A DNA stretch of 64,000 bases from Escherichia coli (GTDB taxonomy: Bacteria; Pseudomonadota; Gammaproteobacteria; Enterobacterales; Enterobacteriaceae): assembly GCF_024223415.1 (NCBI RefSeq), contig NZ_CP100500.1, one strand, 5' to 3'. Under the pieces are notes generated by a model that saw only the letters and a program-made list of their open reading frames with translations, ran no database searches and was not told the DNA's origin. Position 1 is the stretch's first letter, and every line of letters starts with the position of its first letter. Of this stretch, positions 59,782-60,740 are shown in pieces. The translations under genes and the position numbers were made by a program.

Positions 59782-59783
59782 AA

Positions 59784-59810
59784 TGCACAATAGTGCACAA
59801 ATTTGCACAA
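59784..59810. repeat. Three direct TGCACAA repeats at exact 10-bp phasing
   Basis: aaTGCACAAtagTGCACAAattTGCACAAttttttt; candidate protein-binding array. Confidence 0.7.
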
Positions 59811-60026
59811 TTTTTTTGAACGACTTTTTGCCCTTCCGGCCCGTGTGGCGTCTGGATCCGTCGGGGATCCGTGCGTGCACGAAAAAAGGCCTTTTTCTGC
59901 GCGCAGGTGACGGGGGAACAGCCCGCGTTTCAGGGGGTAAATAGCATTCCCTGAACGATGTTGCAGCGACACAACAGAATGGCTGTATTTCTCACGCTGA
60001 GCGTAAAAAAGACGTAAAAGCTTGAT

Positions 60027-60740
60027 TTGATGGGGGTGAAAGATAAGGCCGTCAAAATCGCACTGAGGCAGCGAGAATATGTCGTCAGAGTTGCGGGGTT
60101 GCGTAAGCATCCGCCCGGCGATGATGGCTACAAGGTTGGAGATGTTGTGAAATTATCTGAAGGAATAACCAGCTTGCAGGAGAACCCGGGCAAAGTCAGA
60201 ATAGCGGCAGGCATCAACTCAAAAGAGGATAATGTCATGAGCCACTTTAATGATTTATGCCAGATCAATCGTGAAGCTGAAGAAAAACGCGCTGAGGCAG
60301 CTCAAATTTTGCGGGATGAAGCGGCAAGGCTGATTGATTTCTATGAAGAATGGCTGGGGCTTCCATCCATGTACTGGGAAGACGATGATGGCGACCTGCA
60401 CCGCTACGTGGAGACAGGCTTGCCATGTAAGACAGCGGCGGATTTTAGTCCTCTTTCAGTCCACAATATCGCATCTGCACCAGACAATATTTTCCGCATG
60501 GCCGTGCGAACCTGGGTTAAGTCATCTGACAGCAGCTACCCGGTAAGCGTGGTTATTGCACTTGAATTATATTCAGTAGATGCGGAACGGGTGTCTCTGA
60601 GAGTCCGGGTGGAAGACGATATTTCTGTTCGCGTATTTATCAATAAACCCAGCGAAGAAGCCTGGGGCGATGTTGTTATGCACATGAAAAAGCACATCGC
60701 TAATCACCTGAAAAAGCGAGCGCCATCAGCACTTCGTTAA
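60027..60740 (+). CDS. Hypothetical cargo protein between structured non-coding region and portal gene
   Basis: 237 aa from first ATG (no clear RBS); alternative start ~60237 (MSHFNDLCQ...) has RBS AAAGAGGA and gives ~167 aa; followed by hairpin CGGGGCATAAAtttTTTATGCCCCG. Confidence 0.6.
   Translation: MMGVKDKAVKIALRQREYVVRVAGLRKHPPGDDGYKVGDVVKLSEGITSLQENPGKVRIAAGINSKEDNVMSHFNDLCQINREAEEKRAEAAQILRDEAARLIDFYEEWLGLPSMYWEDDDGDLHRYVETGLPCKTAADFSPLSVHNIASAPDNIFRMAVRTWVKSSDSSYPVSVVIALELYSVDAERVSLRVRVEDDISVRVFINKPSEEAWGDVVMHMKKHIANHLKKRAPSALR

Follow-up and report, generated by a model that had tools for sequence, protein, structure and literature searches.

A P88-like prophage (Xuanwuvirus, P2 family) occupies the 64,000-nucleotide stretch of E. 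coli DNA analysed here (the window) from about 49.3 kb on, beside dmsA. Between its early genes and its portal gene lies a non-coding block that opens with three TGCACAA heptamers. What is the function of this block? The original prediction did not choose between a stretch that controls the cargo ORF downstream, a small RNA, and a part of the cos/packaging region of the phage, and it could not identify the cos site with confidence. The packaging option is strongly supported by the position of the block, by an architecture collinear with that of the P2, 186 and P4 cos sites, and by the sharing of the block with a satellite. We consider it very likely that the stretch from 59784 to about 59948 is the cos (DNA-packaging) site of the prophage. 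The window matches E. coli ECCNB12-2 (NZ_CP033635.1) at 100%, and this genome was used for the satellite comparison.

Position and composition of the non-coding block

The prophage begins with an integrase, a repressor, Cox, a gpA-type replication endonuclease and small ORFs, followed by the non-coding block. Beyond the block are the cargo ORF, the portal and large-terminase genes (both on the - strand), scaffold, capsid and gpM. The head proteins are 35-46% identical to their P2 counterparts. The block has the early-operon terminator on its left and the convergent portal and large-terminase genes on its right, the same place as the cos sites of P2 and 186. As in other P2-family cos regions, the early/accessory genes are on one side and the 3' end of the portal gene (Q) and the terminase gene (P) are on the other. 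The portal gene was found 271-956 bp downstream of the core in 141 of 155 core-carrying loci, at 271-333 bp in most of them and at 607-956 bp where inserts are present.

Of 5426 complete E. coli genomes, 1102 contain the non-coding block. Among phages, P88 and other Xuanwuvirus members (P88_4B11, phiSM, 500465-2 and 520873) are closest, with 85-94% DNA identity across 59784-60160. Enterobacter phage phiT5282H has the same repeats and the same 19-mer at 75% overall identity. The present prophage differs from all of these regions in the GGCC centre of its palindrome and in a 1-bp shorter spacing. No cos annotation was present in the records of these six phages, and literature searches found neither published end mapping or a cos description for P88-like phages nor the core sequence GGTGACGGGGGAACAGCCC.

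With most relatives, homology opens exactly at the first TGCACAA, which starts 8 bp past the terminator-type hairpin, and closes at 60160. Since it starts only at 59784, the terminator is the left boundary of the block and is counted outside cos. In P88 itself, homology begins about 50 bp earlier and takes in the terminator. In relatives that lack a cargo gene, the terminator of the portal operon directly follows the position equivalent to 60160. The features are collected in Table 1.

Table 1. Features of the non-coding block and its neighbors (window coordinates)
Feature	Position	Strand	Remarks
Rho-independent-type terminator	59754-59782	+	Stem AAACGCCCT/AGGGCGTTT (59754-59776) and T-run; rightward early operon
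Three TGCACAA heptamers	59784-59790, 59794-59800, 59804-59810	+	Exactly 10 bp apart; left edge of cos block
Conserved T-run TTTTTTTGA and spacer GCCCTTCCGGCCCGTGTGGCGTCTG	59811-59853	+	In the place of the CCAG..CTGGCGCGG segment of P2-type cos regions
GGATCCG-N4-GGATCCG	59854-59871	+	Direct repeat GGATCCG(T) at 59854 and 59865
Fourth motif TGCACGAAAAAA	59876-59887	+	30 bp left of core
A/T-arm palindrome AAAAAGGCCTTTTT (AAAAAGG/CCTTTTT)	59883-59896	.	Lineage-specific
GCGCGCA and G-rich 19-mer GGTGACGGGGGAACAGCCC	59899-59924 (19-mer 59906-59924)	+	Proposed cohesive-end core
Hairpin TTCAGGG-N13-CCCTGAA	Arms 59929-59935, 59949-59955	+	Right of core
Proposed functional cos	59784-59948	+	Only substantial DNA common to prophage and P4-like satellite
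Rest of conserved non-coding block	59956-60160	+	Kept within P88 clade only; absent from satellite
Cargo ORF	60237-60740	+	Between cos block and portal gene
Portal gene (Q counterpart)	60807-61862	-	Convergent with early genes; 45% identical to P2 Q
Large-terminase gene (P counterpart)	61862-63613	-	46% identical to P2 P

The elements named in the original prediction, which are the three heptamers at 10-bp spacing after the terminator, the GGATCCG direct repeat, the near-palindrome and the TTCAGGG-N13-CCCTGAA hairpin, were all confirmed at their positions. The fourth motif and the invariant G-rich block GCGCGCA-GGTGACGGGGGAACAGCCC had been overlooked. The composite pattern TGCACAA-N3-TGCACAA-N3-TGCACAA occurs a single time in the window, even when 3 mismatches are allowed, and 0.00 occurrences were expected from 100 shuffles. 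TGCACAA itself is under-represented, with 7 copies observed and 16.7 expected, and three of the seven are in the triple array.

Conservation differs from element to element. The GCGCGCA flank and the 19-mer form the most conserved columns of the block (about 99% column identity), and homology to divergent relatives (H54 type, phiT5282H) breaks just past the 19-mer, at 59926/59927. The fourth motif reads TGCACAAAAAA in nearly all relatives, and the A-tract that follows it (A6) is present in all lineages compared. The GGATCCG pair, which is also an inverted repeat because GGATCC is palindromic, is kept in the E. coli P88 clade, whereas other lineages have GGTCTGA..GGATC(G/C)G instead. In P4 this place is taken by GGCGCGGTCTGAGC; a 14-nt exact match between L013 and P4 falls in this region. 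The GGCC centre of the palindrome was seen in 1 of 108 sequences, that of the present prophage; relatives have CGCG, CGCGC or other centres. The usual form among them is A7-CGCG(C/T)-T5-6, and other genera have no clear dyad. Convincing covariation was not found in the palindrome or in the GGATCC pair, and these inverted repeats are kept in the E. coli P88 clade only. The right-hand hairpin is retained in most of the P88 clade, and a divergent type of right arm, TTTGGGG/CCCCAGA, has a compensatory change in it. Because P88 itself has a mismatch in this hairpin and the satellite described below has the first arm without the second, the hairpin is at most an accessory element.

Comparison with the cos sites of P2, 186 and P4

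The 19-nt cohesive ends of P2, 186 and P4 have been defined experimentally and are annotated in their sequence records. PMC3931495, which cites Padmanabhan et al. (1974) and Ziermann and Calendar (1990), gives the 19-nt 5' cohesive ends as GGCGAGGCGGGGAAAGCAC / GGCGTGGCGGGGAAAGCAT. Upstream of the annotated left cut, TGCA(T) is found in all three at -123/-124, -111, -101 and -29. In the window, TGCA(C) is found at -122, -112, -102 and -30 from 59906, and these four are the only TGCA sites in the 200 bp upstream of 59906. The distances from the TGCAY sites to the G-rich block agree with those of P2, 186 and P4 within 1 bp.

The original prediction proposed an alignment with the cos regions of P2 and 186. 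This produced collinear motifs but no significant similarity by BLAST, either to P2 and 186 or to P4. When P2, 186, P4, the window, its satellite and seven divergent relatives were aligned globally, repeats 2 and 3 (RGTGCAY-N4-TTGCAY), a GGCGCGGTCTGA-like segment and TGCAYNAAAA share columns, and the core junction GCG(G/C)GC(R)^GG(Y)GA(S)G (^, junction) aligned in the same columns as well. The fourth motif corresponds to TGCATTAAAA at -29 of P2, 186 and P4, which is the left end of the 55-bp cos core conserved between P2 and P4, and the elements that flank this core are present in the window as TGCACGAAAAAA at -30 and then the palindrome. Read from left to right, the two kinds of site both have three TGCAY motifs (about 123 to 101 bp before the cut), then TGCAYNAAAA at -29/-30 and a short inverted repeat, and finally GCG(G/C)GC(R) and a G-rich 19-mer. 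Both are also downstream of the portal gene, between the accessory/early genes and Q.

The sequences themselves have diverged. The P2 19-mer GGCGAGGCGGGGAAAGCAC has no match in the window at up to 3 mismatches, and its best ungapped match to GGTGACGGGGGAACAGCCC is 13/19, so that 6 of 19 positions differ between the P2-type and the P88-type core. The repeat is TGCAC(AA) in the window and TGCAT in P2, 186 and P4, and its phasing is strictly 10+10 bp as opposed to 12-13+10 bp. An A/T-arm palindrome stands in place of the P2 GC hairpin CCGCCC..GGGCGG, and TGCGCGC is left of the core here but right of the core in P2. The cargo gene is between cos and Q, whereas P2 old and tin are on the other side of cos. 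Since BLAST gave no significant match, homology to the P2 cos site rests on motif order, spacing and bridging variants.

Conservation of the upstream repeats was assessed in three sets of loci. The first consisted of the sequences upstream of P2-type cos cores in IMG/VR, of which 106 were unique and very divergent. Among these 106, TGCAY reached an occupancy of at least 15% only at -124 (41), -120 (19), -111 (70), -101 (78), -35 (28) and -29 (99). From P2, 186, P4 and these IMG/VR loci we derived, as a mark of the P2-family cos, a TGCAY triplet that precedes the cut by about 124 to 101 bp, and the window has such a triplet. The second set was retrieved with the 18-nt core of the P88 type alone and contained 36 unique upstream sequences. 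Three YGCRMRR motifs in 10-bp phase, about 123 bp upstream, were found in 34 of them. The spacer triplets between the repeats differ by lineage (TAG/ATT, ACC/TTT, CAC/TTT, AAG/AAA). Selection appears to act on the repeats themselves, because these 3-nt spacers vary while GCACAA is kept.

The third set reversed the search, and the triple repeat was used to retrieve 118 usable loci. The exact core was found at +121 to +124 (in one case +133) in 97 of these loci, and 6 more had it with one mismatch. In most of the other loci, GCGCGCA is followed at this offset by a different G-rich core, and the portal gene is 380-900 bp downstream; only four or five matches were in unrelated contexts. One of these different cores, GGCGAGGCGGGGGAGCAAG, bridges the two types, as its first 12 nt (GGCGAGGCGGGG) are identical to those of the P2 cohesive end. 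It is such bridging cores that argue best for equating the 19-mer at 59906-59924 with the P2 cohesive end and for placing the left cut at 59905/59906.

A satellite that shares the block

Two IMG/VR loci with the repeats and the core have no portal gene and carry a P4-type integrase instead. Both encode a large primase and an Ogr/Delta-like zinc-finger protein. The same element is found in the window's own genome as a P4-like satellite (L189) of about 12.5-12.9 kb at tRNA-Arg (1.332-1.345 Mb of NZ_CP033635.1). It contains a P4-type integrase, an Icd-like protein, a toprim primase, a second integrase, the cos block, an Ogr/Delta gene, a 236-aa protein, a P2-family major capsid protein and MazEF.

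When the satellite was compared with the 64-kb window by BLAST, the only substantial match was 59784-59948, with 82.5% identity over 171 columns. One other match was weak (66%, 208 nt, at 54710-54905). As a calibration, P4 was compared with its helpers in the same way; 186 matched from -129 to +25 and P2 from -29 to +25. The sharing of cos between satellite and prophage mirrors the relation of P4 to its helpers, and with P2 only cos is common. In both systems, cos is essentially the sole DNA that the phage has in common with its cognate satellite of the integrase-primase-Ogr/Delta kind. Sharing with a satellite, which is characteristic of the P2-family cos, was found in L189 for this block. 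The first heptamer is the exact left edge of the shared segment, which makes the repeats part of the packaging signal that a satellite has to copy. The palindrome of the satellite is AAAAAC-GGTGA-GTTTTT.

Proposed packaging mechanism and its alternatives

The block has the position and the architecture of a P2-family cos, is conserved, and has been copied by a satellite in the same genome. What we infer is where exactly the strands are cut, how long the overhang is, and the identity of the repeat-binding protein. The gpM/gpP terminase of the P2 family uses circular monomers as its substrate and requires proheads. In the mechanism that we propose, terminase (gpP as the large and gpM, WP_045145341.1, as the small subunit) would recognise the region once the phage DNA has been replicated. 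Homology to P2 GCGGGCG^GGCGAGGCGGGGAAAGCAC (^, cut) points to 59905/59906 as the probable cut. The nicks in the G-rich block would be staggered, with the top strand most likely opened at 59905/59906 and the bottom strand at 59924/59925, and the resulting 5' cohesive ends would be 19 nt long and read GGTGACGGGGGAACAGCCC. The three TGCACAA repeats probably serve as an array for terminase recognition. With the fourth motif, TGCAC-A6 at -30, the phased heptamers would form a recognition arm whose TGCA-centred sites would be contacted by an oligomeric phage protein, most likely gpM; three of these sites would share one helix face. Such an arm would resemble lambda cosB, or lambda cosQ if its role is in termination. 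Three further elements, the GGATCCG repeat, the palindrome with A/T arms and the hairpin on the right, may be lineage-specific spacers or architectural parts of cos.

Lambda cos (cosQ-cosN-cosB) is likewise a multipartite packaging site, with a nicking site, a repeat array for the small subunit and bending elements; its gpNu1 sites are R3, R2 and R1, and its IHF site is I1. It has no sequence relationship to the block, and it differs in its 12-nt ends, its 16-bp R sites and its spacing.

The alternative that survives best accepts the cos site but assigns the TGCACAA repeats to a non-terminase protein (of the IHF, Fis or HU type, or another phage protein), or has them act only at the termination of packaging, like lambda cosQ. 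We consider this unlikely. The IHF consensus includes CAA-N4-TTR, and the third repeat with its T-run (CAATTTTTTTG) fits this part of it. The A6 tract that follows the fourth motif in every lineage suggests intrinsic bending, and cutting leaves the repeats at the right end of the mature genome. However, P2-type cos sites have TGCAT at the same positions without a T-run or CAA-N4-TTR, and the invariant part is thus TGCA, which is not IHF-like. The fifth base of the motif also changes with the class of cos, from T in the P2 class to C in the P88 class. This systematic change is easier to explain with a co-evolving phage-encoded binder than with a host protein, and host bending proteins are the less likely candidates for binding the repeats. 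A further point for this alternative is that the repeats are outside the 55-bp conserved cos core described in PMC3931495. According to that paper, which cites Ziermann and Calendar (1990), the 55-bp cos region is conserved among P2 and its relatives and is required for packaging. The fourth motif is where this required region begins, so packaging may be stimulated by the three repeats upstream of it without depending on them.

A second alternative, which we regard as improbable, also accepts the cos site but places the staggered cut in the A/T palindrome or elsewhere, and not in the G-rich 19-mer. The palindrome has the two-fold symmetry expected for the nicking site of a symmetric nuclease. 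In addition, TGCGCGC is immediately right of the cohesive end in P2 and immediately right of the palindrome here (59898-59904). The centre and arms of the palindrome differ, however, between helper and satellite and among lineages with an identical 19-mer. The spacing from the TGCAY sites to the G-rich block, which P2, 186 and P4 share within 1 bp, and the bridging lineages, which have the first 12 nt of the P2 cohesive end (GGCGAGGCGGGG) at exactly that offset after GCGCGCA, also count against a cut in the palindrome. The GenBank record of P88_4B11 opens at another position, the equivalent of 59829, and real ends there would put cos elsewhere. We treat this start as arbitrary, since the record is circularly permuted exactly, without overlap, and is the only one to open at that point. 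No phage record or viral contig was found to begin or end at the core; the truncations near it are internal to contigs.

Transcriptional control, in which the heptamers would be operators for the cargo ORF or the block would encode a small RNA or act as a second terminator or insulator, is very improbable. The repeats are intergenic and upstream of a + strand ORF, and GTGCACAAATTTGCAC with a T-run (59793-59808) was flagged as terminator-like in a scan. Yet the same repeats are present in satellites, and as TGCAT in P2, 186 and P4, all with unrelated flanking genes. The block is conserved regardless of cargo. It is kept in the 141 loci with or without a cargo gene, and homology to relatives without one ends at 60160, before the cargo module, which begins after that position and is equipped with a Shine-Dalgarno sequence of its own (60224-60230). 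On the + strand of 59500-60900, scanning revealed no sigma-70-like promoter, and Rfam gave no match at an E-value up to 1 on either strand of 59500-60400. Control of the cargo ORF and a small RNA, the two other options of the original prediction, are not supported by these results. The small RNA was also rejected because relatives differ by 1-bp indels. The cargo ORF and the small ORFs beside it had no match in PADLOC.

Still less probable is a role of the repeats as replication iterons or as a ParR-type centromere (parC) serving the ParM/ParR-like genes upstream in P88: the 10-bp phasing is like that of iterons or parC repeats, and P88 and several relatives have ParM-like and partition proteins immediately upstream of the block, but the present prophage keeps the repeats with no ParM-size ORF between them and its replication gene, P2, 186 and P4 have equivalent motifs without ParMR, and the replication systems are unrelated, with a gpA-type endonuclease in the prophage and a toprim primase in the satellite that shares the repeats. 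Phased-repeat arrays such as the P4 ori type 2 repeats (3 x 10 bp) are alike in having three short direct repeats at helical phase and a likely oligomeric binding protein. Unlike operator or iteron arrays, the repeats here co-occur with the cos core and with portal and terminase genes, and they have no link to a promoter, origin or regulator. An operator or iteron array was rejected, as there is no promoter-like site on the + strand and the repeats are kept beside unrelated replication systems, with or without ParM or cargo. The suggestion that the heptamers form a protein-binding array on one face of the helix is reasonable for packaging and is not supported for an operator or a replication iteron.

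As a cos site, the block is a sequence variant that has not been previously described, and it is ordinary in kind. With cos located, the packaged genome has defined ends in a prophage group that about one in five complete E. coli genomes carries, and the cargo gene is seen to lie between cos and portal and not on the side where P2 has old and tin. The segment 59784-59948 offers a testable sequence from which to build cosmids or transducing particles specific to P88-type helpers. Antimicrobial delivery already makes use of P2/P4 cos systems, to which such constructs would be orthogonal. Conservation of the phased TGCAY triplet suggests that the signal extends beyond the 55 bp commonly quoted as the P2 cos core, and the matching satellite indicates that helper and satellite cos sites co-vary. 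More tentatively, the triplet may be an unrecognised, near-universal second recognition element of the P2-family cos, a small-terminase array like cosB, that together with the variable G-rich core would define packaging-specificity classes of helpers and satellites. The P88 type (TGCAC and GGTGACGGGGGAACAGCCC) would then be a distinct class, with its own family of satellites that carry a P2-type capsid gene.

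The insert beside the proposed cos site and its reading frame

In this prophage, an insert separates the proposed cos site from the portal gene. About 20 IMG/VR loci likewise carry an insert between cos and portal, with portal distances of 905-956 bp. In P2, by contrast, the tQ terminator is all that separates cos from the portal gene; the P2 accessory genes old and tin are located on the opposite side of cos from the insert found here.

RefSeq annotates 60030-60740 as a single 236-aa CDS starting at 60030, which extends into the conserved block adjoining cos. The true start of the cargo ORF is probably 60237, since the PHROG family phrog_5091 (164 aa) covers 60237-60740 end to end, a Shine-Dalgarno sequence (AAGAGGA) lies upstream of the ATG at 60237, and the position equivalent to 60030 is a stop, ATGGGGTGA, in most relatives. 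A PADLOC search with the cargo protein gave no match.

Coordinates of features discussed in this section
Feature	Coordinates	Location
Insert between cos and portal gene	window 60161-60806	
Near-copy of the cos core, GATAACGGGGGAACAGCG	window 58115-58132	replication-endonuclease gene, 3' part
P4-like satellite, ~12.5 kb	NZ_CP033635.1 1,332,000-1,345,000 (locus L189 1,400-13,800)	outside the window, at tRNA-Arg/yfdC

Partial resemblances to cos

A near-copy of the cos core lies within the window and has a 13-nt exact run, ACGGGGGAACAGC, in common with the core. The chance expectation for matches of this kind is ~0.02, and the near-copy is possibly a coincidence.

Two IMG/VR loci, L033 and L094, are unrelated elements whose tandem 10-bp repeats incidentally contain TGCACAA; in L033, TGTCACAAC repeats are also found near the array. 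These arrays are probably iterons of other replicons. Because they occur in unrelated elements, cos is not identifiable from the heptamer array alone.

In the P2 record NC_001895 (33449-33480; L003 1450-1480), the first TGCAT repeat overlaps the expected -35 position of the leftward old/tin promoter; the old/tin transcript starts annotated in NC_001895 are at 33424 and 33426. This overlap is specific to P2, since the upstream sequence in 186, P4 and this prophage holds rightward genes or terminators.

The proposed P88-type cos and its arm in other elements

The P4-like satellite L189, in the same genome as the prophage, also has a P88-type cos. Among its products are two integrases, a toprim primase, an Icd-like protein, an Ogr/Delta zinc-finger protein and MazEF, together with a 423-aa "P2 family major capsid protein" and an unknown protein of 236 aa. 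Unlike P4, it has its own capsid gene, and tblastn (E<1e-5) found no homologues of P4 sid, psu, delta or alpha in it. The satellite is present in about 55 of the complete E. coli genomes, and four other loci are related to it (L098, L109, L021 and L030).

Sister lineages in IMG/VR keep the TGCACAA triplet and have a different G-rich core at the same +123 offset: GGCGAGGCGGGGGAGCAAG, GGCGCCGGGGGGACAGCGC, GGCGACGAGGGAAGGGCGC, GGCGCGGCGGGGCTACCAC or GGTGCCGGGGGAACAGCCC (loci L029, L045, L054, L091, L107, L022, L087, L015, L076, L081, L116 and L125; and L126 (H54)). This pattern suggests that one recognition arm underlies several cos specificity classes.
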